Assembly (NCBI GenBank): GCA_934149365.1
Contig: CAKPEI010000007.1
Location: 126-64,125, forward strand
Direction: 5' to 3'
Source: an uncultured Clostridia bacterium
GTDB taxonomy: Bacteria; Bacillota; Clostridia; TANB77; CAG-465
Length of the DNA stretch: 64,000 nucleotides
The position numbers and the translations under genes are program-made. How positions within the stretch are numbered: position 1 is the stretch's first letter; every line of letters begins with the position of its first letter. The notes under the pieces are model-generated. The model was not told the origin of the DNA, made no database searches, and saw nothing but the letters and a program-made list of their open reading frames with translations. This document shows positions 8,391 to 59,413 of this stretch, piece after piece.

Positions 8391-9746
8391 GTGAGAGAAA
8401 ATGATTTGATAGAGCTAGATATAATAGATAATGGAATGAATTTTGAAGGAATTGCAAGATATAACGATAAAGTGGTATTTGTACCAGATACTATAAAGGG
8501 GGAAAAAGTACTTGCAAAAGTTGTAAAGGATAATCCAAAATATACACTTGCAAAGGTTCAAAATGTATTGATTAAGTCAAAGGATAGAGTATATGAAGAT
8601 TGTATGGCATATTATAGTTGTGGTGGATGTAATGGTATGCATATGAATTACTCTAGAACTCTAGATGTTAAAAGAGAAATAGTTAAAAATACTTTAAGAA
8701 AACAAGGAATTGATGATGGCTTAGTAGATGATATTTATGGCATGGGAATTCCTTATCATTACAGGAATAAGGTGCAGTTTCCAGTAAGAAATATAAAAGG
8801 AAGAAATGCTTTTGGTATGTTTTCTGAAAAAAGCCACAAATTAGTTGAAGTTAGTAATTGTAAGATACAAGATGAAAGAATAAACGAAATAGCTAAATAT
8901 ATGTTTGACATTTTAAATAAAGAAGGTATTTTGTGTTACGATGAAACTAAAAAAAGTGGAGATGTAAAAAACATAATGGTAAGACGTGGAGTGCATACAG
9001 GTGAAGTTTTGTGTATACTTGTTGTGACAAGTAAAGAAGTTGCAAATAGTTCAAAAATTAAAAAGGTGTGCGATAGTGTAGCCCAAAAATATGAAGAAGT
9101 AAAAGGTTTTGTGGTAAATATAAATGAAACAATGGGCAATGTTATTCTAGGAAAAGAAAACCTAGTGCTTTATGGTGAAGATAGAATAAGGGATAAAATT
9201 GGTGATAAGACTTTCTACATTTCTGCTAATTCTTTTTTTCAAGTAAACACGATAATGGCAGAAGTGATATATTCTCTCTTAGAACAAATGCTTAAATTAG
9301 ATAAAACAGAGAATTTGCTAGAGTTATATAGTGGAGTTGGCACAATAGGAATATTTTTGTCTGATAAGGTAAAGAGTGTTTACGGAATAGAAATAGTAGA
9401 AGATGCAGTAAATATGGCAAAAGAAAATGTTGAACTAAATAACGTTTTAAATGCTGAATATATAGCAGGTGATGCTAGCAAAGAACTTGAAAAGTTATCA
9501 AAGGAAAATAAAGTGCTTGATGTAGTAGTTGTTGATCCTCCAAGAAAAGGACTAGATAATGAAGGAATAAATATATTGAAAAGGATAAAACCTAAAAAAA
9601 TAGGGTATATAAGTTGTAATCCTGCTACACTCGCAAGAGACTTAGCATTACTTAAAGAAGAATACGAAATTTCTAAAGTAGTACCAGTGGACATGTTTCC
9701 ATGGACGAGCCATGTGGAGTGTGTAACGGTGTTAAAACTTAAATAA
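8391..9746 (+). CDS. 23S rRNA (uracil-5-)-methyltransferase, RumA/RlmD family (TRAM + SAM MTase)
   Basis: TRAM N-domain, Cys cluster (YYSCGGCNG), C-terminal SAM methyltransferase motifs (DPPRKG). Confidence 0.85.
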   Translation: MRENDLIELDIIDNGMNFEGIARYNDKVVFVPDTIKGEKVLAKVVKDNPKYTLAKVQNVLIKSKDRVYEDCMAYYSCGGCNGMHMNYSRTLDVKREIVKNTLRKQGIDDGLVDDIYGMGIPYHYRNKVQFPVRNIKGRNAFGMFSEKSHKLVEVSNCKIQDERINEIAKYMFDILNKEGILCYDETKKSGDVKNIMVRRGVHTGEVLCILVVTSKEVANSSKIKKVCDSVAQKYEEVKGFVVNINETMGNVILGKENLVLYGEDRIRDKIGDKTFYISANSFFQVNTIMAEVIYSLLEQMLKLDKTENLLELYSGVGTIGIFLSDKVKSVYGIEIVEDAVNMAKENVELNNVLNAEYIAGDASKELEKLSKENKVLDVVVVDPPRKGLDNEGINILKRIKPKKIGYISCNPATLARDLALLKEEYEISKVVPVDMFPWTSHVECVTVLKLK

Positions 9747-9768
9747 ATTCCTAAAATACTGATATTAA

Positions 9769-9810
9769 AATGCTTGATAAAATTAGAAGTCTTTATCAAA
9801 AGTTTTTCTT
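9769..9810 (+). terminator. putative terminator hairpin after the methyltransferase gene
   Basis: ttgataaa...tttatcaa stem followed by a T-run. Confidence 0.35.
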
Positions 9811-9912
9811 ATTTAAGTTTTTATGATTATAAAGCATTAAAATAATATTTTTTAGATGAATATGGAAGAATAAGTTGTTTCGAATAAGTAGCTAATTGAA
9901 TATAAAAAGTAT

Positions 9913-10130
9913 ATGAGACAATTTTATCGTGCTTTTCCAAATCGTCACACACTGTGTGACGAATTAAGTTGGTCACATTACAGACTGTTAATGAGAGTAG
10001 GAAATTAAAAAACAAGAAGTTTTTATGCAGAAGAATGTGTGAAATCTGGGTGGAGTGTAAGGTAATTAGAAAGACAAATAGGAACATTTTATTATGAAAG
10101 ATTATTAGCAAGTCAAGATAAGGAGACGGT
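9913..10130 (+). pseudogene. fragment of DUF1016 (YhcG-like PDDEXK nuclease) gene, frameshifted and truncated
   Basis: MRQFYRAFPNRHTLCDELSWSHYRLL. then, in another frame, EKARSFYAEECVKSGWSVRQLERQIGTFYYERLLASQDKE. These are hallmark N-terminal DUF1016 motifs, but broken by stops. Confidence 0.5.
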
Positions 10131-10135
10131 AGAAA

Positions 10136-10477
10136 ATGTGCGACTATGGTTATAACATAGAAATAGGTGAAAACTTTTATGCCAATCACAATTTAATTAT
10201 ACTAGATGCAAATAAAGTTACTTTTGGAGATAATGTGTTTGTTGCATTTTATACGTCAGGACATCCTTTAGAATATGAAATTAGAAATAAGGGATTAGAA
10301 TATGCTAAGCCTATAAATGTAGGAAATAATGTGTGGATAGGTGGAAATGTCTGTGTATTGCCTGGTGTTACAATAGGAGATAATGTTGTGATAGGTGCAG
10401 GAAGTGTTGTTACCAAGGATATACCTTCAGGTGTTGTAGCTGTTGGAAGTCCTTGCAAAGTCATAAAAGAAATATAA
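10136..10477 (+). CDS. hexapeptide-repeat sugar O-acetyltransferase (Maa/LacA family), N-terminally truncated
   Basis: 113 aa matches only the C-terminal ~60% of maltose/galactoside acetyltransferases. Left-handed beta-helix hexapeptide repeats. Confidence 0.55.
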   Translation: MCDYGYNIEIGENFYANHNLIILDANKVTFGDNVFVAFYTSGHPLEYEIRNKGLEYAKPINVGNNVWIGGNVCVLPGVTIGDNVVIGAGSVVTKDIPSGVVAVGSPCKVIKEI

Positions 10478-10505
10478 TGATATATTAATATTAAGGAGAG
10501 TATAT

Positions 10506-11414
10506 ATGGAAATACAGAAAAATGGCGAAGGAGTAATAATTAAAAATACAGCAGAGTTATCATTAGAAAAATTAGATGAATTAAAGAAAAATGGACTCGT
10601 TTGGGTACAGTTAAGAGATGATAGAGGAACTGGTGAACCGAGTGTTTTCTATTGCGATACATTTGAAAAGATAAAAAATAAAGTATTAGAGTATGCCAGT
10701 GGCGCGCCTAAGGAGACAGCCGATGATCCAGATATGGAAAAGAAAAAATTTACATACGTATATGAAAAAATCGCTAAAAATGTTTCATATCACGAAAAAG
10801 CTTCTAAGGCCTGTGATCTTGTGGGATACGAAAGAGACATGGCTAGCCCTATGATCGAAAGGGCATCTGGTCTTGAGGCAATACTAGAAGATAAAGCACT
10901 ATGCTCTGGGTATTCAGAAATATTAAGAAATGTTCTATCAGAGGTGGGAATAGACTCGTTATATATTAGTGGTGGGCCTAAGAATATGGGTGAAGCTATA
11001 TCTACTAATTCTGGTTCACATGCATGGAATCAAGTAAAGCTGGATGGGAAATGGTATAATTGTGACTTAACAAATGATGCCGATTTCATATTAAGTGGGT
11101 TAAAGTTACCACACTATTTAAAGAGTAATGATGAGTTTACAAGATATACAAAGTATCCTTGTAAAGACTCGTCAAAAATTCAGCAGGCAAATGAAAGTGT
11201 ATCAGAAGAAAAGCAGGAAAAGTTAATTGAAGAACAAAGACAAACACTTTTGGAAGAAGAAAAATCAATAGAAAATGGTTCATTAAAAGAGCAGTCTATT
11301 GGTAAAGGATTTATTTCTAAATTAAAGGGATTCTTTAAAGGAAAAAAGGTAAATGCAAAAGAATTAAATGATTTTTCACTTGATAGTATAAATAGAGAAG
11401 AAAGAGGTAGGTAA
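10506..11414 (+). CDS. transglutaminase-like cysteine protease domain protein
   Basis: Cys...His...Asp arrangement (ALCSGYSEIL ... HAWNQVKLDGKWYNCDLT). Confidence 0.45.
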   Translation: MEIQKNGEGVIIKNTAELSLEKLDELKKNGLVWVQLRDDRGTGEPSVFYCDTFEKIKNKVLEYASGAPKETADDPDMEKKKFTYVYEKIAKNVSYHEKASKACDLVGYERDMASPMIERASGLEAILEDKALCSGYSEILRNVLSEVGIDSLYISGGPKNMGEAISTNSGSHAWNQVKLDGKWYNCDLTNDADFILSGLKLPHYLKSNDEFTRYTKYPCKDSSKIQQANESVSEEKQEKLIEEQRQTLLEEEKSIENGSLKEQSIGKGFISKLKGFFKGKKVNAKELNDFSLDSINREERGR

Positions 11415-16571: not shown

Positions 16572-16638
16572 ATGAAAATGAAAAATTTAAAAAAGAAAAA
16601 GCGGAATATCATTAATAGTACTAGTAATAACAATAATA

Positions 16639-17739
16639 GTGATGATAATACTAGCAGCCGCAATAATATTATCACTGTCAAATAGTGGGATAATAGGAAA
16701 GGCAAATAAAGCAAAGACAGATAGTGATACAGCAAATTTAAAAGAGTATGTAAATACACTAAGAGCAGAGTATGAGTTAATGACGGCAGATGAACAGGTG
16801 GCAGCGGGGGAATTTGTAGATTATGCAAATACAAAGTTGGCGGAGAAAGGCTATAAAAGGAAGTTAGCAGCAGATGGAAAAACAATAATGAATGAAGCAG
16901 CAACAGCAGCAGTAGATGCAGGAATAAAAATAGGGGATGAAGTAAAGTATAGTGCAGTGCTAACAGCAAAAGATTATATAACAGACGGAAGTGAAACGTC
17001 GCCAACAGGAGCAGCAGATAGTACAAAAACACAAAAAGTAAAAACAAACACAAGTTATACATGGAAATATATAGGTTTAGGAGAAAATGGAAGTTTACTT
17101 ATAGCGCCAGATCTGACAGGAAGAATAGACAATGATTATAAACTAACATTAGGAAATAGAGGTGGATATTTAAACGGACCAAAAATGTTAAATACAGTGT
17201 GCGATGCTTTATATACGGTAGAAGGAAAAGGAAAAGCCCAAAGTATGAATATAGAGCTGGTAAATAAGTTATTGGAATATAATGGACCAAAGGGAATGTA
17301 TTATGACACTAGTAAAAATTTAGTAGAGACAGCAGAACCAAAAACAATAGAAGAAACAGGTTTAGAATCAAGTTTGGGTTCAAATACACAAACACCAGAT
17401 GGAAAAGATATAAGTACATATTATGCTGATTGTTACTATATAAATAAAACAGAGCATGCAAGTAGAATAACAAAAGACACAGTAAGACAAAACCTAGTAT
17501 ATCAATCAAATGCATATTGGCTTGCTTCTACCTGTGTCAATGCATATTTCAACTTAGGTTGGGTGCGTTTCTATGTACGTGACGTTGACTCTTCTTACAT
17601 GTGCAGTGGCGCGATCAACATGTTTGTTTCCACTGGCAATGCCGGTAACTATGCCTATGCAGTTCGTCCGTATGTTTCTCTAACAACTAATGTTCAAAAA
17701 ACAACGGAAAACGGAAAAACAGTATGGACATTAAGTTAG
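16639..17739 (+). CDS. pilin-like anchor / hypervariable C-terminal domain protein, paralog p2; 5' frameshifted like p1
   Basis: ATG at 16572 (MKMKNLKKKKR...) runs into a stop. The main ORF frame resumes at MMIILAAA. A-tract aaaaaagaaaaagcgg. C-terminal YWLAS.CV...VRPYVSL block present. Confidence 0.7.
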   Translation: MMIILAAAIILSLSNSGIIGKANKAKTDSDTANLKEYVNTLRAEYELMTADEQVAAGEFVDYANTKLAEKGYKRKLAADGKTIMNEAATAAVDAGIKIGDEVKYSAVLTAKDYITDGSETSPTGAADSTKTQKVKTNTSYTWKYIGLGENGSLLIAPDLTGRIDNDYKLTLGNRGGYLNGPKMLNTVCDALYTVEGKGKAQSMNIELVNKLLEYNGPKGMYYDTSKNLVETAEPKTIEETGLESSLGSNTQTPDGKDISTYYADCYYINKTEHASRITKDTVRQNLVYQSNAYWLASTCVNAYFNLGWVRFYVRDVDSSYMCSGAINMFVSTGNAGNYAYAVRPYVSLTTNVQKTTENGKTVWTLS

Positions 17740-23193: not shown

Positions 23194-23320
23194 GTTAAAA
23201 TATATTTAAAAAAATTAGTTATACTAAATGATGTAACTAATTTTTTACTTTTTTATATAAAAACACTTGACTATCTTTACTAAATTTATTAAAATTTTTG
23301 AAAAAATGGAGGAGATAGTT

Positions 23321-24262
23321 ATGAAAAAAAGAGAAGATATATATAATTTGTATTGGTATTTCGCAGCGGAAAGACAAAACATTTTCTATAAAAAACTAAA
23401 TGGAGAAAAAGCGCCTTGGACTAATGATAGAATATTACAAGAGTACAAATTTTGTAATAGTTATAGAGCAAGTGATAGAGTGTCACAGTATTTGCTTAAA
23501 AATGTAATATATAACGGAAAAAAGTATAGTAAGGAAGATACAATATTTAGAATAGTACTATTTAAAATATTTAATAAAGAGGCTACGTGGGAGCTTTTTA
23601 TAGATGAACTAGGAGATGTTAAGTTAGATAATTTTGAATTTAAAAAGTATTGTAATATACTTCAAAAAGCCAAAGATAGAGGAGAAAAAATATATACAGA
23701 TGCATATATGTCTTGTGCTACTAAAGCGTATGGATATGATAAAAAACATGAAAATCATATTGCACTTATAGAAGAAATGTTTGTAAAGGACAAGTTACAA
23801 GATAAAATAATTAATTCAAAAACAATGGAAGAAGCTTTTAATTATATAAAAGGATATCCTCTTATTGGGGATTTTATGGCATATCAATTAATAACTGATA
23901 TAAATTATAGTGAGGCAGTTAATTTTAGTGAAATGGAATTTACTGTTGTAGGACCTGGCTCAAGAAGAGGGATAGCTAAGTGTTTTACTGATCTAGAAGG
24001 AATGAGTAAACAGCAGGTTATAATGTGGATGTGTGAACATCAGGAAGAAGAGTTTCAAAGATTAGGAATAAATTTTAAAAGCCTAGGTGGCAGAAAACTT
24101 CAATATATAGATTGTCAAAATTTATTCTGTGAGTTAGATAAATATTTAAGAAAAGCTAAGCCAGAACTTAAAAGTAATAGAACTAATATAAAGAAAAAGT
24201 ATGTACCTAAAAAAGAAAAAATAGATTATTTATATCCACCTAAGTGGAATATTGTAATATAA
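23321..24262 (+). CDS. putative DNA base hypermodification protein (alpha-glutamyl/putrescinyl thymine pyrophosphorylase-like family)
   Basis: N-terminal block YNLYWYFAAERQNIFYKKLNGEKAPWTNDRILQEYKFCNSYRASDRVSQYL resembles the aGPT-Pplase family. Start at the SD-preceded ATG 23321. Confidence 0.35.
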   Translation: MKKREDIYNLYWYFAAERQNIFYKKLNGEKAPWTNDRILQEYKFCNSYRASDRVSQYLLKNVIYNGKKYSKEDTIFRIVLFKIFNKEATWELFIDELGDVKLDNFEFKKYCNILQKAKDRGEKIYTDAYMSCATKAYGYDKKHENHIALIEEMFVKDKLQDKIINSKTMEEAFNYIKGYPLIGDFMAYQLITDINYSEAVNFSEMEFTVVGPGSRRGIAKCFTDLEGMSKQQVIMWMCEHQEEEFQRLGINFKSLGGRKLQYIDCQNLFCELDKYLRKAKPELKSNRTNIKKKYVPKKEKIDYLYPPKWNIVI

Positions 24263-24524: not shown

Positions 24525-25718
24525 ATGAGAACAAAAGTTAAACTAAAAGGCGGAATATCATTAATAGTATTAGTAATAACAATAATAGTAATGATAATAC
24601 TAGCCGCAGCAATAATATTATCGCTATCAAACAGTGGAATAATAGGAAAGGCAAATAAAGCAAAGACAGATACAGACATATCAAATGCAAAAGACTTAGT
24701 GGCTATGGCTCATGCAGACTGGATGCTAGATGAGGCAAAGATAAAAGAGAACGATGATACAATAACATCATTTAGTAACTATGCAGAAAAGAAATTACAA
24801 GAAGCAGGATATAAAGTAGGAGCAGGAGAAGGAGCATATACAGTAACAGAAGATGGAGAAGTATATACAGGTCTAACAGAAACAGCAAGAACAGCAGTAA
24901 CATCTGGGATAAAAATAGGAGATGAAGTAAAGTATAGTGCAGTGCTAACAGCAAAAAGTACTACAACAGACGGAAGTGAACAAAGTGCAACAGGAGCAGC
25001 AGATAATGCGAAGAAACAAACAGTAAAAACAAACACAAGTTATACATGGAAATATATAGGCTTAGGAGAAGATGGAAGTTTACTTATAGCACCAGATATG
25101 ACAGGAGCAATAGGAGCAGACTATAAATTAACATTAAGAGATAAAGGTGGTTTTTTAAATGGGCCTAAGATGTTAAATACAGTATGTGATGCGCTATATA
25201 CAGTAGCTGGAAAAGGAAAAGCTCAAAGTATGAATATAGAGCTAGTAAATAAGTTATTAGAATATAATGGACCAAAGGGAATGTATTATGATGCAAGAGG
25301 AATTCAAGTAGAGACTGCAGAACCAAAAACAATAGGAGAAACGGGCTTAGTATCAAGTTTGGGCTCTAATACCCAAACACCAGATGGAAAAGAAATAAGT
25401 ACATATAAAATAGATTATTACTCTATAGCCAAAAAAGGGAAGGCAAGTAGAATAACTAAAGACACGGTAAGACAGAATCTAGTATATCAAGAAAATGAAT
25501 ATTGGCTTGCTTCTCCGTGTGTCTGGGCCAATGTTGACTTCGGCTGTGCGTTTTTCTTTGTACGCTACGTTATCTCTTCTGATGTGAACACGGTAAGCAT
25601 GTTCTATTCGGATGGCGGCTCTGATAGCTATACCTGTGTTATCCGTCCGTATGTTTCTCTAATATCTAATGTTCAGAAAACAACTGAAAATGGAAAAACA
25701 GTATGGACTTTGAGCTAG
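24525..25718 (+). CDS. pilin-like N-terminal anchor / hypervariable C-terminal domain protein, paralog p3 (intact)
   Basis: MRTKVKLKGGISLIVLVITIIVMIILAAAIILSLSNSGIIGKANKAK: basic leader, then G followed by a ~25-residue hydrophobic helix. C-terminal YWLASPCV...FFVRYV...VIRPYVSL. Confidence 0.75.
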   Translation: MRTKVKLKGGISLIVLVITIIVMIILAAAIILSLSNSGIIGKANKAKTDTDISNAKDLVAMAHADWMLDEAKIKENDDTITSFSNYAEKKLQEAGYKVGAGEGAYTVTEDGEVYTGLTETARTAVTSGIKIGDEVKYSAVLTAKSTTTDGSEQSATGAADNAKKQTVKTNTSYTWKYIGLGEDGSLLIAPDMTGAIGADYKLTLRDKGGFLNGPKMLNTVCDALYTVAGKGKAQSMNIELVNKLLEYNGPKGMYYDARGIQVETAEPKTIGETGLVSSLGSNTQTPDGKEISTYKIDYYSIAKKGKASRITKDTVRQNLVYQENEYWLASPCVWANVDFGCAFFFVRYVISSDVNTVSMFYSDGGSDSYTCVIRPYVSLISNVQKTTENGKTVWTLS

Positions 25719-25853: not shown

Positions 25854-26690
25854 TTAATTTCTTTTTTCTCTCTTTATAAGTTTTGCGTGAAGTACTGCAC
25901 GTTCAGTATCTTTATAACAAGTGGAAAGTGTTAATATGTAATCCTTTGCAGATACCTTTGTTTTAAAGTTATGCTGACTTCTTTTAAGAAGCATATTCGC
26001 AAAATTTAAAAATTCTTGGTCGCTACCAAAGGTTGTACTTAAGTAATCACTAGTAGTAGGAATATGGTATATGCTAAAGACTTGCCATAATGTATTTTCT
26101 GTTTCTGTAGATAGTTTTATTACATAATTTTCAGAGTTGTTTAACCAACCATTAGTAAATATATTTATTAAAGAGCCAAACATTGTTTTGTTAAGTCTTG
26201 AGTGACCATATATTATTGTGTTTTTATTTAAGTTTTTGATGTTATTCCTATAATCTAAGAAAATCCAACCTGCAGCATTATTTGTTTTATCAAAAGAATG
26301 TGTTAAATAATATTCATTATTGTCTACTTGAACAAATGGATAATTTATATTAGTACCATTTACTTGTATCCAACCAACAGTAGAAGAATTTTTTTCTTTT
26401 AATTTAGCAAAATCTACATTGATTAAGTTCATTTCTATAAAATCCCAGTAAGGATCATCTTTACTTACTTCTTCTTGTTCTATTATTTCTGTATTTTCAC
26501 TATCTTGTACTTCACTTACGTCATTGATTTTTTCTATGTTTTGCTCAACATTTTTGGTTTTACCATTGTCTAAAAACCATTTAACTATATATATACTAGA
26601 AAGTACAATTAATAATGAAAAGAAACATATTAATATTATATTTATTTTCTTTATTTTTCTGTTTTTTTCTTGTTTTACTGCTTTTCTCAT
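25854..26690 (-). CDS. srtB: class B sortase
   Basis: IYGHSR (His), TLSTCYKD..R (Cys/Arg) catalytic triad spacing, N-terminal signal-anchor, NNEYYLTHSFD block. Confidence 0.75.
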   Translation of the reverse strand: MRKAVKQEKNRKIKKINIILICFFSLLIVLSSIYIVKWFLDNGKTKNVEQNIEKINDVSEVQDSENTEIIEQEEVSKDDPYWDFIEMNLINVDFAKLKEKNSSTVGWIQVNGTNINYPFVQVDNNEYYLTHSFDKTNNAAGWIFLDYRNNIKNLNKNTIIYGHSRLNKTMFGSLINIFTNGWLNNSENYVIKLSTETENTLWQVFSIYHIPTTSDYLSTTFGSDQEFLNFANMLLKRSQHNFKTKVSAKDYILTLSTCYKDTERAVLHAKLIKREKRN

Positions 26691-38968: not shown

Positions 38969-40153
38969 ATGAGAACAAAAGTTAAATTAAAAGGCGGAAT
39001 ATCATTAATAGTATTAGTAATAACAATAATAGTAATGATAATATTAGCCGCAGCAATAATTTTGTCACTATCAAATAGTGGAATAATAGGCAAGGCAAAT
39101 AAAGCAAAAACAGATAGTGATACAGCAAATTTAAAAGAGTATGTAAATACCCTAAGAGCAGAATGGGAGTTAATGACAGATGCAGAAAGATCAGTCAAAG
39201 CAAATTCATTTGAAGAATATGCAAACAAAAAGCTAGCTGATAATGGCTACAAAGGAGCAGTAGGAGCAGATGGAGAAGTATATTCAAACTTAAATGAAAA
39301 TGTAATGGCAGCAATAAGAGCAGGAATAAAGGTAGGAGATGTAGTAACAGGATATACAGTAACATCGACTACGTATACAACAGACGGAAGTGAAAATACA
39401 GCTTTAAACGGCTCAGAAACCAATCCACAATCACAAACAGTAACAGCAAATACTGCGCTAACATGGAAATACTTAGGAGTAAATGCAAATGGAGAGCTAG
39501 AAATAATGGCAGATTTAGGAGAAGAAGTTGCAGCAAATACTAAGGTAAATTTATCAGGAAAAGGTGGATACTTAAAAGGGCCAGGAATGTTAAATACAAT
39601 ATGTGAAAAGTTATATTCAAAAGAAGGAGTAGGAACAGCAAGAAGTATGAATATAGACGATGTAAATAATATATTAGGATATACAGGACCAAAAGGAAGT
39701 TATTCCGATACTAATTATAACACAGTAACAACAGCAGAACCATTAACAATAGGAGATATAGATAAGAAATTAGGAACATCACTAGGAAATACAACAACAA
39801 CACCAGATGGAAAAGCCTTATCCACATATTATGCAGATTGTTACTTTATAGATAAAACTAGCGGCAAAAAAGAGATGAAAAATCCAGGAAATGTAGATTT
39901 AGTATACAATGCTAAAAATGCGTACTGGCTTGCTTCTCCGTGTGTCAATGCGCTTTTTGGCGGCAGCTATGCGTACTTCTATGTGCGCTACGTTTACTCT
40001 GCTAGCGTGGACATGTGCGAAATGTTCTATTCGAATGACATCTCTAACTTCGATACGTTTGCGGTTCGCCCTGTGGTTTCTCTAAAATCTAATATCCAGT
40101 TAACACGAGATATTGGGGAAACAGAATGGAAAATAAAGCAGGCACAAAACTAG
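38969..40153 (+). CDS. pilin-like anchor / hypervariable C-terminal domain protein, paralog p4 (intact, most diverged)
   Basis: MRTKVKLKGGISLIVLVITIIVMIILAAAIILSLSNSGIIGKANKAK; C-terminal YWLASPCV..FYVRYVYS..FAVRPVVSL. Confidence 0.75.
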   Translation: MRTKVKLKGGISLIVLVITIIVMIILAAAIILSLSNSGIIGKANKAKTDSDTANLKEYVNTLRAEWELMTDAERSVKANSFEEYANKKLADNGYKGAVGADGEVYSNLNENVMAAIRAGIKVGDVVTGYTVTSTTYTTDGSENTALNGSETNPQSQTVTANTALTWKYLGVNANGELEIMADLGEEVAANTKVNLSGKGGYLKGPGMLNTICEKLYSKEGVGTARSMNIDDVNNILGYTGPKGSYSDTNYNTVTTAEPLTIGDIDKKLGTSLGNTTTTPDGKALSTYYADCYFIDKTSGKKEMKNPGNVDLVYNAKNAYWLASPCVNALFGGSYAYFYVRYVYSASVDMCEMFYSNDISNFDTFAVRPVVSLKSNIQLTRDIGETEWKIKQAQN

Positions 40154-50551: not shown

Positions 50552-51124
50552 TCACTCTATTTTTTCAATTAAGTAATAAAGTATGTCCATGTATTCATCA
50601 GGGGTAAGAAGGGTTTCATTACTATCTTTGCAACCTACAGAGTGAATTAAAGTATAATTTTCTTTTTTAGCCTTGTTAATTGCATAACTAAATATTTCAG
50701 ATTGTTCATATAGAGCGATGTAAGCTCTTTTTAGCAAAAGAATATAATCTTCGCTATGCCTATCATAAGTGCGCCCTTTCCAATATATTTGTTGTTTTAC
50801 TCTCCAGTCATCAAACATTGTACGAATACTGTAACAAAAAGGCCCGGTTTTTGCACAAAGCTCTCGTTGAAGTTGTGTGTTTTTTACTTTTAGTGACTGA
50901 ATAAATGCTTCCATTGAATAACAATAAACGTTATCGAATTTGAAAGAGTAAGGGCATAAATTTGACAAAGCCTTTGCTATACCTTTTGATTTAAAGCTTA
51001 TATCAATGATGTTAGAGCCTTGAATAAGATAGTTGCATGAAGGATTTTGACATTTGTTTAAATCGCCTCCTAAAAAAATTAGTTCATTTCCGCATTTTGG
51101 ACAATAAAGCGTAGAATAATTCAT
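50552..51124 (-). CDS. hypothetical protein with N-terminal zinc ribbon
   Basis: CPKCG...C.NPSC. Confidence 0.3.
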   Translation of the reverse strand: MNYSTLYCPKCGNELIFLGGDLNKCQNPSCNYLIQGSNIIDISFKSKGIAKALSNLCPYSFKFDNVYCYSMEAFIQSLKVKNTQLQRELCAKTGPFCYSIRTMFDDWRVKQQIYWKGRTYDRHSEDYILLLKRAYIALYEQSEIFSYAINKAKKENYTLIHSVGCKDSNETLLTPDEYMDILYYLIEKIE

Positions 51125-55147: not shown

Positions 55148-55413
55148 ATGTTGAAAAAAGTTTTTGGTTAAAGTAGAATAGTTGTAGAGAAAATGTATGA
55201 AAAAAAATAGAGGTAGAGATATGAAAGAGAGTAAGTTTAAATAGCGGTATAAAAAGGTTAGTTATGCGTAAATAATTATGCATAGCTAGCTTTTTGTGCA
55301 TAAAAAGTATATTACGATAGAAAATATTAATATGAATAAAAATAAATATTCAAAAATCATTTTAAAAAGTGCAAAATGTGAAAAAAACAGGTATACAAGG
55401 AGAGGAAAAAGAT
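55148..55413 (+). promoter_or_regulatory. conserved leader module E preceding p5
   Basis: TTGAAA(55151)-N17-TAGAAT(55174); short uORF MKESKFK containing gagagag; catagctagctttttgtg. Confidence 0.55.
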
Positions 55414-57201
55414 ATGAAAAGACTTAGAACAAAAGAGGGAGTATCATTAATAGTTTTGGTTATAACAATAATCGTGATGATAGTATTAGCAGGAGCTGTT
55501 ATACTTGCTTTAAATAATTCAGGTATTATAGGTAAAGCAAATATGGGAAGAGCCAAAAGTGATTTATCAACATTAATGGAAGAGGTACAAGTTAAAGCTG
55601 CAGAAAGAAAATTAAATGGACTAGATGTAGATGGAAGATATAAATTATCTGACTGGGGAATAGAAAGTCAAGAATATGAAGATAGAGTTATAATAGACAG
55701 TGGAAAGTTAAAAGTATCAAATAAAGGAAAAAATGATGAATTTGAAAAGGCAGCAAAAGAACTTGGTATTTTAACAAATACAGCTAATGCAGTACTTGAA
55801 AATACTACAGGAGAAAGTTTATTAGATTACAAGATATATGGAAACACTATACAAGGTGGTAATTTATTAGATAAAAATAATGTAAATTACATCATAGGTT
55901 ATTTTTTCAGAAGTAAGCCAGTAGTAACTACACATGCTAATGCTAGAACAATATATATCGAGTGTAAACCTAATACTTCATATGAGGTAACAAGAAGTGC
56001 TAGCTTCTCACAATTCCACATAGGTTGTACTTCTGATGTGCCAGAAGTTGGAATGGAAGTAAAAAATGTCGTTAGCGCAGATAAAACGACACAAATGAGA
56101 CTTAAGACTACTACAGATGATACTGCAAAGTATTTAGTTATATATTGCTATAATGGATATGAAGTTTCTGATAATTGGGAAGATATAGTAAATTCAATAG
56201 TAGTATCTGAAACACCTTCAATTAATAGTCCAGTTCAAATGCTGAGTTTGGGAGATTTAGTAACAGATGCAAATGATGCTAACTATGGTAAATATAAATT
56301 GCAAGTTGATATTAGTGGTAAGAATTTGCTACATTCTGATGTTACAACAAAAACATTAAATGGAGTAACGTTGATAAATAATAATGGAGAAATAACATTA
56401 AACGGAACTTGTACAGCAAGTGCAAATTTTGATATGGGCTATATTGATTTTGAAACAGGTACATATACTTTATCCGCAAATGCAAACAAAGTTCCGGTAG
56501 ATAACGGTCATTCATTGGTGCAAATATATGATTCTGTTAATCAGCAAGATTTACAGTTAACTAATAAAAATGCCTTAACATCAATAACTGGCACTGTGAA
56601 AAAGAAAGCTAAGTTTTTATATAGGATTCGTATAGAGGGTGGAACAACATATGATAATCTAGTTATAAAACCACAAATAGAGAAAGGAGAACAATCAACA
56701 AGTTATGAAACCTATCAAACTCCTAAACTAGTTACTATTTACCTAAATGAGCCACTTAGAAAAACAGGAGATTATGCTGACTATATTGATTTTAAAGAGA
56801 AAAAAGTAGTGAGAAATGTTAAATCTGAGCTTTCAGCTAATAAAGCTTGGAGTTATAGACAAGAAGACGATATAATATATTATGGAGTAAAAAATGCAAG
56901 ATATGAGGCAGATATATTTTGTAATTATATACCTAGTGAGACTAAAAGAATAGATGGTATGTCTTATGTAAGAACAGTAGATGAAGTTGTTAGAATATAT
57001 AACAGAGGATATTGGGAAAGTTTGGATGCATTTAAAAATTGGCTAGCAGACAAAAAAGATTTTGAAGTGATTTATCCATTAATTACACCAACTGAAGAGA
57101 GTATAACATTACCTGATATACCAACGTTTAAGGGAACAACAATAATTTCTGTAAGAGGAACAAATGGAATAGAAGCTTCTAATATAGTAGCAGAATATTA
57201 A
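55414..57201 (+). CDS. pilin-like N-terminal anchor fused to a large C-terminal domain with phage tail-fibre-like motifs, paralog p5
   Basis: MKRLRTKEGVSLIVLVITIIVMIVLAGAVILALNNSGIIGKANMGRAKSD; internal YLNEPLRKTGDYADYIDFKEKKVVRNV and SLGDLVTDANDANYGKYK. Confidence 0.6.
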   Translation: MKRLRTKEGVSLIVLVITIIVMIVLAGAVILALNNSGIIGKANMGRAKSDLSTLMEEVQVKAAERKLNGLDVDGRYKLSDWGIESQEYEDRVIIDSGKLKVSNKGKNDEFEKAAKELGILTNTANAVLENTTGESLLDYKIYGNTIQGGNLLDKNNVNYIIGYFFRSKPVVTTHANARTIYIECKPNTSYEVTRSASFSQFHIGCTSDVPEVGMEVKNVVSADKTTQMRLKTTTDDTAKYLVIYCYNGYEVSDNWEDIVNSIVVSETPSINSPVQMLSLGDLVTDANDANYGKYKLQVDISGKNLLHSDVTTKTLNGVTLINNNGEITLNGTCTASANFDMGYIDFETGTYTLSANANKVPVDNGHSLVQIYDSVNQQDLQLTNKNALTSITGTVKKKAKFLYRIRIEGGTTYDNLVIKPQIEKGEQSTSYETYQTPKLVTIYLNEPLRKTGDYADYIDFKEKKVVRNVKSELSANKAWSYRQEDDIIYYGVKNARYEADIFCNYIPSETKRIDGMSYVRTVDEVVRIYNRGYWESLDAFKNWLADKKDFEVIYPLITPTEESITLPDIPTFKGTTIISVRGTNGIEASNIVAEY

Positions 57202-57228
57202 TATGCTTTTTAGGAGAGGTGAGACTGT

Positions 57229-59091
57229 ATGAAAATTAAGAAAAATAGAATTGGAATATCGTTAATATTATTAGTAATTACAATAATTATCATGATAGTG
57301 CTAGCTGGAGCTGTTATGCTTGCCCTAAGTAATTCAGGCATTATAGGAAAAGCAAATATGGGAAGAGCTAAAAGTGATCTATCCACATTAATGGAAGAAG
57401 TACAAGTTAAAGTTGCAGAAAGAAAATTGAATAACTTAGATACAGAAGGAAAATATAAATTATCTGAGTGGGGAATACAAAACAGCACATATGAAGATAG
57501 AACTATGATAGTTGGAGGAAAACTAAGAGTATTAAATAAAGGAAAAGATGATGATGTAGAAAAAGCTGCAAAAGAGCTTGATATTATAATAAATACAGCT
57601 AGTGCAGTACTTGAAAATACAACTGGAAGTAGTTTGCTAAACTATAAAATATATGGAAATAGTATTCAAGAAAAACAAAATGGGAAAAACCACATAGAGT
57701 TCCCTTATTATAATAAAAACAAAGTAGAAGATACAGGTTTAACTTTTGTACAAAATGACGATAATACTATTACTATTAATGGTACTTCTACAAAATATGT
57801 TGTATATTATTTAAATTCAGGTTTAAAACTTCCTAATAATAAATATTTCTTGTCAGGTCTTCCAAGTGAACTTACGGGTATTAAACTTACTGCAGGAGCA
57901 AAAGATGAAAGTGGAAATACGCTGTTATACGTAGGAGACACTGGGGAAGGAACATCGTTTGACGTTACTAATATTAAATTTTGGGGTGTAACAATAGCAA
58001 TTAGAATAGATGCAGGTGTAACATTAAATAATGTAACTATAAAACCACAACTGGAAGTGGGCTCTACTTCAACCGAATATGAAAAATATATACAAAGTCC
58101 AACTCCAAATAACCCGGTTAAAGTGCAAAGTCTTGGAGATTTAGTAACAGATGCAAATGATGCTAACTATGGTAAATATAAAATACCGGTTAGAATTAAT
58201 GGAAAGAATTTGTTTAATAATAATCAGAATCCAACTAATTATTTTTATGATGATTTAGGAGTATATAGGGCGTCGCAAGTTATTGACTCATTTAAATATG
58301 TTAGAGCTGATGTTAGCCAGAACAAATATATAACTTGTAGTTATTCTTCATATCAATCCAATGTTACCGAACTTCCATATATAAGATTTACTGAATTTGA
58401 TGAAAACAATAATTTCATAAAAAGAACGCTAGTTAGCTATAAGGATATAGTAGATAAAAAAATAACCTATGTGGCAAGTGCAAATGCTAGTTATTTAGAT
58501 ATAAGAACTGAAGCAGATAATAGCCCACAAAAATCATATTTTAGCAATCTTCAAATAGAATATGGAAAAGAGGCAACAAGTTACGAAGAATATGAAGAAA
58601 AACAAGTTAACATTTATTTAAATGAGCCACTTAGAAAATTAGGAGAATATTCTGATTACATTGATTTTGAAAAGAAAAAAGTAGTAAGAGAAATAGGAGT
58701 AGACAAAATAGGTGATTTAACTAATGTTGAATATCATGCTTCAGCTATGCCAACGTATCCATATGGCTTTTTTGTAGCATATACTACCAAAGCTAGAAAG
58801 ACAGGAGAAAAATTATTATCTAGTGCATATGTTAGTAAAGCAAACTTTAATATAGATAAAGTGGCTTTCGGCAATGCTAAAGGTAAAAATATATACTTTG
58901 TAGATAAAGATTATACTGACGCAAGTACCTTTATAAAAGCGCTTCAAAATGAAGAAGTACAATACATATTAGAAGATCCAATAGAAGAGAGTATAACGTT
59001 ACCGGATATACCAACATTTAAGGGAACAACAGTAATTTCAATAGTAGGGGTAAACGGAGTAGAAGCTTCTAATATAGTTGCTGAATATTAA
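57229..59091 (+). CDS. pilin-like N-terminal anchor fused to a tail-fibre-like domain, paralog p6 (tandem to p5)
   Basis: MKIKKNRIGISLILLVITIIIMIVLAGAVMLALSNSGIIGKANMGRAKSD. Shares the N-terminal 140 aa, the YLNEPLRKLGEYSDYIDFEKKKVVR motif and the C-terminal ESITLPDIPTFKGTT..ASNIVAEY with p5. Confidence 0.6.
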   Translation: MKIKKNRIGISLILLVITIIIMIVLAGAVMLALSNSGIIGKANMGRAKSDLSTLMEEVQVKVAERKLNNLDTEGKYKLSEWGIQNSTYEDRTMIVGGKLRVLNKGKDDDVEKAAKELDIIINTASAVLENTTGSSLLNYKIYGNSIQEKQNGKNHIEFPYYNKNKVEDTGLTFVQNDDNTITINGTSTKYVVYYLNSGLKLPNNKYFLSGLPSELTGIKLTAGAKDESGNTLLYVGDTGEGTSFDVTNIKFWGVTIAIRIDAGVTLNNVTIKPQLEVGSTSTEYEKYIQSPTPNNPVKVQSLGDLVTDANDANYGKYKIPVRINGKNLFNNNQNPTNYFYDDLGVYRASQVIDSFKYVRADVSQNKYITCSYSSYQSNVTELPYIRFTEFDENNNFIKRTLVSYKDIVDKKITYVASANASYLDIRTEADNSPQKSYFSNLQIEYGKEATSYEEYEEKQVNIYLNEPLRKLGEYSDYIDFEKKKVVREIGVDKIGDLTNVEYHASAMPTYPYGFFVAYTTKARKTGEKLLSSAYVSKANFNIDKVAFGNAKGKNIYFVDKDYTDASTFIKALQNEEVQYILEDPIEESITLPDIPTFKGTTVISIVGVNGVEASNIVAEY

Positions 59092-59227: not shown

Positions 59228-59413
59228 ATGTCAAAAAAAGAAGTAAGCAAGAAAAACAATGCACTCTGTACATTACTTACAATTATCGGTATCATCTCTA
59301 TGGTTGGCATTGCTTTTTCAAAAAATTTACCTACTACTGCACTTATACTTGTTATCTCGCTTGCTGTTATATTTACCATAAGCCAAAACATGGATAAACC
59401 TAAAGATAAATAA
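59228..59413 (+). CDS. small membrane protein
   Basis: 61 aa, 2 TM, SD ggagg. Confidence 0.3.
   Translation: MSKKEVSKKNNALCTLLTIIGIISMVGIAFSKNLPTTALILVISLAVIFTISQNMDKPKDK

Follow-up and report, generated by a model that had tools for sequence, protein, structure and literature searches.

A pair of tandem genes, p5 and p6, lies near the end of the 64-kb window analysed here (the whole stretch of 64,000 nucleotides from an uncultured Clostridia bacterium). We think it probable that they encode modular type IV pilin-like adhesins, in which phage-type, putatively glycan-binding modules would be displayed on a pilus and one insert of the module, D2, is exchanged. The N-terminal anchor of both proteins is, judging from its sequence, a type IV pilin-like module, which the initial annotation of this locus had not recognised. 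The remainder, from the (L)xYKIYGNxxQ motif on, appears to reproduce a module that would be at home mainly in the adhesion proteins of phage virions. The initial annotation had proposed that p5 and p6 are host surface proteins made by fusing a family anchor to a phage-type binding domain, and this proposal gains support from the phage relatives and the chromosomal locus described below.

The p5 coding sequence (55414..57201, + strand, as are all p5 and p6 features given here) encodes 595 amino acids from its ATG and combines the pilin-like with the phage-type adhesion module. Its tandem paralogue p6 (57229..59091), located 27 nt 3' of p5, encodes 620 amino acids. The p5 open reading frame (ORF) could be extended upstream to a GTG at 55369. 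AGGAG-type ribosome-binding sites were found 5' of both ATGs, and the alleles of p5 and p6 from other samples begin at the identical Met. These alleles include P0008 (96%) and P0007 (78%) for p5 and P0001 (100% identical) for p6. In BLASTP, p5 and p6 aligned with an E-value of 4e-89 and 35% identity overall, and residues 1-147 were 74-77% identical, in agreement with the earlier observation that both carry the family N-terminus and have about 140 residues in common. This N-terminus is present in six copies in the window, at ~97/121, 16618, 24525, 38969, 55414 and 57229. The motifs quoted earlier, and the common C-terminal end, were located in both proteins: SLGDLVTDANDANYGKYK at residue 278 of p5 and 301 of p6, IYLNEPLRK...KKVVR at residues 442-467 and 462-487, respectively, and ESITLPDIPTFKGTT...EASNIVAEY as the final 34 residues of each. 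Neither YWLAS nor VRPYV was found in p5 or p6, while both occur in the paralogues p1-p4; the earlier statement that the pair lacks the YWLASPCV/VRPYV core was thus correct.

Both proteins begin with a class III-like signal (p5, 55414..55512; p6, 57229..57327). The leader is basic, nine residues long and ends in Gly (MKRLRTKEG in p5, MKIKKNRIG in p6), and Gly9 is nearly invariant in 15 anchors. It is followed in p5 by 24 hydrophobic residues, VSLIVLVITIIVMIVLAGAVILAL, with Val at position +5, and in p6 by ISLILLVITIIIMIVLAGAVMLAL, with Leu at +5. The hydrophobic pattern, xS/T-L-I-x-L-V-I-x-I-I-x-x-I-L-A, runs in register with that of classical pilins, G|FTLIELLVVIAIIGILA, and leader and tract together satisfy the definition of a class III signal, that is, a short hydrophilic leader up to Gly or Ala followed by some 21 mostly hydrophobic residues, the alpha1-N part of a helix of ~50 residues (PMC8179133). 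The pilin-like module spans residues 1-135 (p5, 55414..55818; p6, 57229..57633). In the AlphaFold2 (AF2) models of the p6 module, two helices with a kink between them (residues 12-35, or from residue 4, and 38-67) are followed by a hairpin at about 92-103 and a helix at 109-116; the p5 module, with ~77% identity to that of p6, is expected by homology to fold likewise. From its N-terminus on, the module would thus consist of the basic leader with its Gly, the 24 hydrophobic residues of alpha1-N, alpha1-C, which is amphipathic and reaches residue 67, and a very small head. A hidden Markov model (HMM) of the first 75 residues of the 15 anchors was searched against 177,635 PDB sequences. The eight best matches were all type IV pilins, aligned in register from Gly(-1) through alpha1-C, and included Geobacter PilA-N (E 8.4e-6 and 1e-5), Streptococcus sanguinis PilE1 (4e-4) and MshA (2.5e-3). 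In other Firmicutes, the C-terminal module of p5 and p6 follows canonical prepilin N-termini (PF07963), and hhalign of the anchors with homologues that have such canonical GFTLIELL (PF07963-bearing) ends gave a probability of 89% and an E-value of 2e-6. Anchoring by sortase was ruled out, as p5 and p6 have no LPXTG motif and end in ...EASNIVAEY without a hydrophobic tail, although a sortase gene is present in the window (25854-26690, - strand, directly 3' of p3).

The window matches NODE_31, a 334-kb contig of ERZ4560092 (Hadza gut metagenome) with a coverage of 34.6. In the same sample, contig NODE_162 carries P0015 (616 amino acids; 61% identity in the pilin module) and a 619-amino-acid paralogue. 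The gene order on NODE_162 is as follows: an A24_N protein, two pilin-like proteins of 376 and 65 amino acids, pilB, pilT, pilC, P0015 and the 619-amino-acid paralogue. The coverage of NODE_162 is 33.1. Its tetranucleotide correlation with the window after removal of the homologous genes is 0.9955, equal to the level within the window and above that of every other locus compared. Both contigs very probably come from the same genome, and because NODE_162 matches the window in coverage and composition, this genome very probably has type IVa pilus (T4aP)-type machinery in which the pilin slot is held by p5/p6-like proteins. We consider this operon context to be the strongest support for the pilin nature of the anchor.

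Some further features of the linked operon (locus L112) were recorded. The C-terminal half of the protein encoded at 3618-4412 resembles a small prepilin with a glutamate at position +5 (Glu5), MKRKMADEELEKVNSKKG|VFNIEILVAIF..., and a fused gene, an overlap of two genes and a candidate for the major pilin are all possible; its pilin-like KKG|VFNIE segment gave no PDB pilin match. The 376- and 65-amino-acid proteins (4417-5547 and 5557-5754) are also without Glu5. The former showed a weak match to a ConA-like lectin domain (Laminin_G_3, E 5e-4), recalling S. sanguinis PilC.

The C-terminal module was found to be organised as two variable inserts, D1 and D2, inside a conserved frame of three elements. 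According to the alignment consensus, these elements are the YGN motif, the stretch PSP-SLGDLVTD-YGKYK-GKNL, and IYLxEPLRKxGDYxDYIDF..KVVR together with the C-terminal domain. In p5, the phage-type module starts with LLDYKIYGNTIQ (55819..55854), the Y-G-N..Q residues of which are nearly invariant in 118 homologues. It continues with D1 (~residues 148-266; 55855..56211), whose nearest non-allelic relatives are anchorless and at most 45% identical, and with the second frame motif, TPSINSPVQMLSLGDLVTDANDANYGKYKLQVDISGKNL (56212..56328), the upstream breakpoint of the cassette described below. Then follow D2 (56329..56695), the swappable cassette, delimited by blastn of the window against the loci of three other samples (L114-L116) and by sliding identity, and the conserved C-terminal domain (56737..57201), which runs from IYLNEPLRK... 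to ...EASNIVAEY and was assigned by homology with the p6 C-domain family. The corresponding elements of p6 are D1 (residues 148-289; 57670..58095), the frame motif SPTPNNPVKVQSLGDLVTDANDANYGKYKIPVRINGKNL (58096..58212), placed by sequence and strain comparison, D2 (residues 329-455; 58213..58593) and the conserved C-terminal domain (58612..59091), which has 1,484 representatives. The initial annotation had associated the quoted motifs with phage receptor binding. The motifs are not the binding determinants; they form the conserved frame around the inserts.

The AF2 model of p6 (mean predicted local distance difference test score, pLDDT, 73.5) is a chain of beta-sandwich domains. D1 of p6 was modelled as a confident beta-sandwich (pLDDT 74-95), and its relatives at 44-46% identity are anchorless. 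When the p6 model was compared by Foldseek with viral structures (BFVD), matches with E-values from 2e-21 to 1e-11 were obtained. The best of them was the Dit protein of phage PMBT5 (E 2e-21), and the others were named distal tail, tail fibre, head fibre, BppU-domain and receptor-binding proteins. Structure prediction thus places p6 next to phage proteins, as had been suggested. The expected trimeric beta-helix fibre was not seen: the AF2 monomer model consists of beta-sandwich domains that weakly resemble carbohydrate-binding modules (CBMs), and a beta-helix tail fibre was ruled out on this basis.

Searches of Pfam, NCBIfam and PHROGs returned nothing significant for p5 or p6, the C-terminal module included, and the single phmmer match of p6 among PDB sequences, AcrIIA13 (E 0.007), is regarded as chance. 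With a profile of the family alignment, the only PDB matches were pilins, to the N-terminus; the C-terminal module had none. Database searches retrieved 811 relatives of p6 and 961 of p5. An exhaustive search of 1.84 billion proteins with the last 172 residues of p6 gave 1,484 representative clusters at E<=1e-3, and nearly all of these matches lay at the C-terminal end of the protein. The relatives differ in their N-termini. No anchor was present in 116 (~89%) of 131 newly retrieved representatives, while three had a Glu5-less pilin, three a canonical Glu5 prepilin and nine another hydrophobic or a 'GLTYAYY' N-terminus; for 188 closer relatives the respective numbers were 99, 54, 10 and 25. 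Residues 1-135 were found only with the pilin-like anchor type, and the part from residue 136 to the end is common to the anchorless phage proteins. The ...LLGLTYAYY... N-terminus, seen for instance in the homologues P0021, P0124, P0128, P0133 and P0190, presumably resembles SipW/TasA-type signals. With this class added to the other anchors, the N-terminal sequences for export or anchoring that carry the phage-type module are of three different kinds or more.

A search of the viral contigs of IMG/VR with a 53-residue core alignment as the query yielded 23 homologues, and all 23 were anchorless, with a short leaderless N-terminus of ~20-70 residues preceding the (L)xYKIYGNxxQ motif. We checked the gene neighbours on five viral contigs and one metagenome contig. 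On L109, the homologue lies between a collagen-like tail fibre, itself preceded by a tail protein, and an amidase; on L092, it follows the tape measure, Dit and a 111-amino-acid protein and precedes a Tal-like protein; and on L091, it follows a tail fibre. On L104, the order is terminase, portal, two small genes, the homologue (8879-10570) and a minor head protein, and L100 has the same ORF layout with the homologue at 8519-10579. This position between the portal and the minor head protein suggests a role as head fibre or decoration. On the metagenome contig, L005, two homologues lie in tandem immediately 5' of an endolysin gene. By tblastn, residues 147-279 of p6 matched a 708-amino-acid tail-module protein of Butyrivibrio phage Ceridwen (1e-8) and residues 283-434 of p5, the internal insert only, matched the Dit of Eggerthella phage PMBT5 (2e-4). 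The data support the view that the C-terminal part of p5 and p6 is, by the origin of its relatives, a phage virion adhesion module. The kinship with phage virion proteins claimed earlier was therefore upheld, but it is not confined to tail fibres, as some relatives occupy Dit/baseplate and head-module positions.

In other gut Firmicutes, genes of this family were seen in core housekeeping surroundings. Six consecutive ORFs, five anchored and one anchorless, lie between rpoD and ctsR (L113, 3023-11551). A single gene with anchor and module lies between secY...recD2 and adk in a ribosomal protein region (L117, 10001-11515).

Comparison of strains showed that D2 is replaced as a unit. The flanking DNA is 96.6-98% identical at the nucleotide level across strains, while blastn found no nucleotide match for positions 56328-56695 of the window (D2 of p5) in the loci of the three other samples. 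At the protein level, the p5 allele P0007 has 13-30% identity in D2 and 93-100% elsewhere, and the p6 alleles P0005 and P0006 are replaced at residues ~330-445. The replacement cassette of P0007, which sits at the p5 locus, has 86% identity with the cassette of the p6-type allele P0005 and 58% with D2 of P0015, the paralogue in the pilus operon. The nearest relatives of p5 D2 (58-63%) are anchorless, phage-type proteins and proteins with the 'GLTYAYY' N-terminus, and no relatives of p6 D2 were found beyond its own alleles. The breakpoints of the cassette coincide with the two internal motifs that the initial annotation had picked out. Because of this wholesale replacement between near-identical flanks and the kinship of the cassettes among paralogues, we conclude that D2 behaves as a recombining cassette, bounded by conserved motifs and common to the paralogues, with related but not identical versions in phages. 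The modular domain shuffling postulated earlier was thus seen directly, as allelic replacement.

Several observations weigh against assembly into a pilus and display of glycan-binding domains on it. Both p5 (Val) and p6 (Leu) lack Glu5, which is characteristic of bacterial pilins, and Pfam N_methyl (PF07963/IPR012902) did not match either protein at E<=1. Foldseek of the N-terminal model gave no PDB match, and known pilins have a far larger head. The 64-kb window contains no pilus genes, and the assignment of both contigs to one genome is based only on coverage and composition. The 'PilD' of the linked operon (L112, 3618-4412) has the four-Cys A24 N-terminal domain and no recognisable aspartyl-protease domain, so the processing enzyme was not found. 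Concerning the binding module, D2 of p6 was modelled with low confidence (pLDDT 40-72), and the p6 model had only weak PDB matches, to CBM-like and GH2 sugar-binding sandwiches and to XepA (best E 3e-4).

The first group of these observations is what one would expect if p5 and p6 were plain signal-anchored bitopic proteins in the N-in/C-out orientation, with an uncleaved anchor that is never processed or polymerised and with the binding domains at the membrane surface. Such a protein needs neither Glu5 nor an N_methyl match, neither a pilin-like head fold nor a catalytic prepilin peptidase domain in the linked operon. The scattering of such genes among housekeeping genes, next to dnaE in this window, between rpoD and ctsR or between secY...recD2 and adk elsewhere, also agrees with it, as does a window free of pilus genes. 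However, the anchor profile matched pilins in register and nothing else, the module is carried on canonical prepilin N-termini in other bacteria, and the closest paralogue pair lies directly after pilB-pilT-pilC. In addition, a mere anchor would have no need of the conserved Gly that closes the short basic leader at -1. We therefore regard the plain anchor as possible but doubtful, and a pilin-like, presumably leader-cleaved subunit as the better description of p5 and p6.

The surroundings of the pair are those of an ordinary bacterial chromosome. The window has a G+C content of 29%. Upstream of p5 lies dnaE, and the other neighbours encode a PHP-domain protein, an acyl-ACP thioesterase, a U32 peptidase, ScpB and AddB. 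The remaining genes of the window have housekeeping functions (ftsW/rodA, murC, radA, disA, carD, ABC transporters and others). Capsid, terminase, integrase and tape-measure genes were found neither within 10 kb of p5/p6 nor anywhere in the window, in line with the initial annotation, which had seen no phage genes beside the pair. The order dnaE-p5-p6-61-amino-acid ORF-PHP is kept in the three other samples (L114-L116), so the neighbourhood in related strains is an ordinary chromosomal one too. The closest DnaE among 185,579 species genomes has 66% identity (uncultured Clostridia metagenome-assembled genomes; nearest representatives 43-66%), the related dnaE loci of these genomes have no p5/p6-like genes beside dnaE, and p6 as the query retrieved no relative from genome contigs. 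Of the species whose genomes were sampled, only this one was seen to have the p5/p6 pair. Because of the synteny in three other samples and the housekeeping surroundings, we conclude that p5/p6 form a stable chromosomal locus, not a prophage, of one uncultured Clostridia species.

As the C-terminal modules are related to phage virion proteins, and the phage contig L005 also has such genes in tandem, p5 and p6 could also be read as the remnant of a prophage tail module or a tailocin. This is extremely improbable. No structural, lysis or integrase genes lie within 10 kb, the dnaE-p5-p6-PHP synteny extends over four samples, and both ORFs are intact and preceded by ribosome-binding sites. The pilin-like anchor is common to four paralogues that are not phage-like (p1-p4), and it was missing from all of the 23 phage homologues. 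Gene context and synteny rule out a cryptic prophage, and the earlier statement that the pair is not a prophage tail module holds.

Downstream of p6, a small membrane ORF of 61 amino acids with two helices (59228..59413, + strand) is present in all four samples and was called as a gene in L003 and L114-L116; whether it is part of the p5/p6 system is uncertain. The only phage-flavoured Pfam matches of the window, located amid housekeeping genes, are a 5-hmdU DNA kinase-like gene (23267-24262, + strand; PF18723, E 8e-106) and a Phage_30_3 gene (50552-51124, - strand; PF08010). Both families are associated with phage DNA hypermodification. The paralogues p1-p4 (121-1248, 16639-17739, 24525-25718 and 38969-40153) also carry the pilin-like anchor sequence. 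The YWLASPCV...VRPYVSL block at their C-terminus is conserved at its flanks and contains scattered positions that are hypervariable from copy to copy. This recalls a variable region of the diversity-generating-retroelement or C-type-lectin type; scans of the window showed no reverse transcriptase. In p1 and p2, in-frame stops were found just 5' of the GISLIV motif (~60-125 and 16580-16645) and there is no obvious Met with a basic leader, so an unusual start or degenerate copies are possible.

For p5 and p6 as modular pilin-like adhesins, the following sequence of events can be proposed. The class III-like signal would insert the proteins in the membrane with the N-terminus in and the C-terminus out, and they would be handled by type IV pilus machinery whose genes (pilB-pilT-pilC) lie in another part of the genome. 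They would be displayed at the surface, most plausibly at or near the tip of the pilus, because both are bulky and without Glu5. There, D1 and D2 may bind a saccharide ligand. As the PDB fold matches of the beta-sandwich domains are weak, this is argued by analogy with the CBMs on the virions of Gram-positive phages (PMC6669499, PMC7291167). Recombination at the frame motifs could swap D2 between alleles, paralogues and probably phages, and thereby diversify specificity. The module itself may have passed from phages to the host.

A bolder variant of this scheme would hold that receptor-binding modules were captured from phages onto a Glu5-less pilin scaffold, that cassettes are exchanged with paralogues and phages, and that bacterial wall glycans, the cell's own or those of neighbours, are recognised, for adhesion to kin or prey or for receptor masking. 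We consider this unlikely; if true, phage virions and host pili would share a two-way 'adhesin pool'. Less likely still is an anti-phage function, in which the displayed modules would mask the wall polysaccharide of their own cell or act as decoys and the turnover of cassettes would reflect an arms race. The homologous adhesion modules of related phages recognise saccharides of the host wall (PMC6669499, PMC7291167), the closest relatives of p5 D2 are in phage-type proteins, and the replacement of D2 between strains with otherwise 96.6-98% identical flanks would suit such a race. However, selection by host, diet or immunity would make an adhesin turn over its cassettes just as well, and no experimental or contextual link to defence genes was seen (PADLOC was not searched).

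The p5 and p6 proteins resemble, and differ from, several known systems. Modular type IV pilins are exemplified by S. sanguinis PilB, with a vWA module, and PilC, with a ConA-like lectin module, and by CofB (PMC8179133, PMC9934059, PMC10191384). Like these, p5 and p6 have a small N-terminal pilin module and, connected by a linker, a bulky adhesive module thought to be exposed at the tip; domains not specific to pilus biology have been 'cut and pasted', and the hosts are monoderm Firmicutes with pilB/pilT/pilC machinery. Each combines a pilin module with one or more further domains foreign to pilus biology, which is how a modular pilin is defined (Raynaud et al. 2021). In contrast to the known set, p5 and p6 have neither Glu5 nor the IPR012902/PF07963 signature. 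They would therefore have been missed by the published survey of modular pilins, which was built on the IPR012902 signature and on cargo domains as defined by InterPro (PMC8179133). They also differ in that the graft is a multi-domain phage virion adhesion module without a Pfam family, that they are orphan tandem paralogues far from pilus genes, and that one of their inserts is exchanged as an allelic cassette.

Gram-positive siphophages carry CBM-decorated adhesion proteins, such as 'evolved' Dit, BppA-type CBMs and neck or head decorations (PMC6669499, PMC7291167). To those of PMBT5 (Dit) and Ceridwen (the 708-amino-acid protein), p5 and p6 are related by sequence homology in D1/D2 and by structural similarity over the whole module, and in both cases beta-sandwich inserts are set in a conserved scaffold and binding domains are exchanged. 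Unlike the phage proteins, p5 and p6 carry a pilin module in place of the short phage N-terminus, are without an attachment domain of the Dit, Tal or fibre kind and are encoded in a housekeeping region of the chromosome. Since they lack a virion attachment domain and are not in a phage genome, they are homologous to phage adhesion proteins without being members of any phage structural class.

Ruminococcus albus CbpC/GP25 are cellulose-binding proteins of the pilin family, small (~20-25 kDa) canonical pilins with no grafted phage-type modules. By description only, they are similar to p5 and p6 as pilin-family proteins of gut or rumen Clostridia for polysaccharide binding. Tip-capping minor pilins of the GspK/PilK type also lack Glu5 (PMC10191384). 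The p5 and p6 proteins can be likened to them only by the missing Glu5, the extra domain and the proposed tip location, and the absence of Glu5 would fit a tip-capping subunit. In contrast to GspK, however, the 376- and 65-amino-acid and the two large pilin-like proteins of the linked operon are all without Glu5. A description of the p5/p6 anchor or of a fusion between a pilin and a phage module was not found in the literature, which could be searched only incompletely, so this is weak evidence of novelty.

The p5/p6 proteins represent a branch that is invisible to surveys of this kind, a Glu5-less, signature-negative pilin-like scaffold with an unannotated module. This module, with 1,484 representative clusters and no relative in Pfam, NCBIfam or the PDB, has phage virion proteins as its main reservoir. 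Even if display on a pilus should prove wrong, p5 and p6 would still form a new family of phage-derived surface proteins. The coordinates of frame and inserts give a map of domain boundaries for the expression of the binding domains, and the motif-bounded replacement of cassettes offers a handle on the movement of binding specificities between phages and hosts. The finding connects phage host recognition with bacterial adhesion, two fields that are usually separate, in abundant uncultured Clostridia of the human gut.

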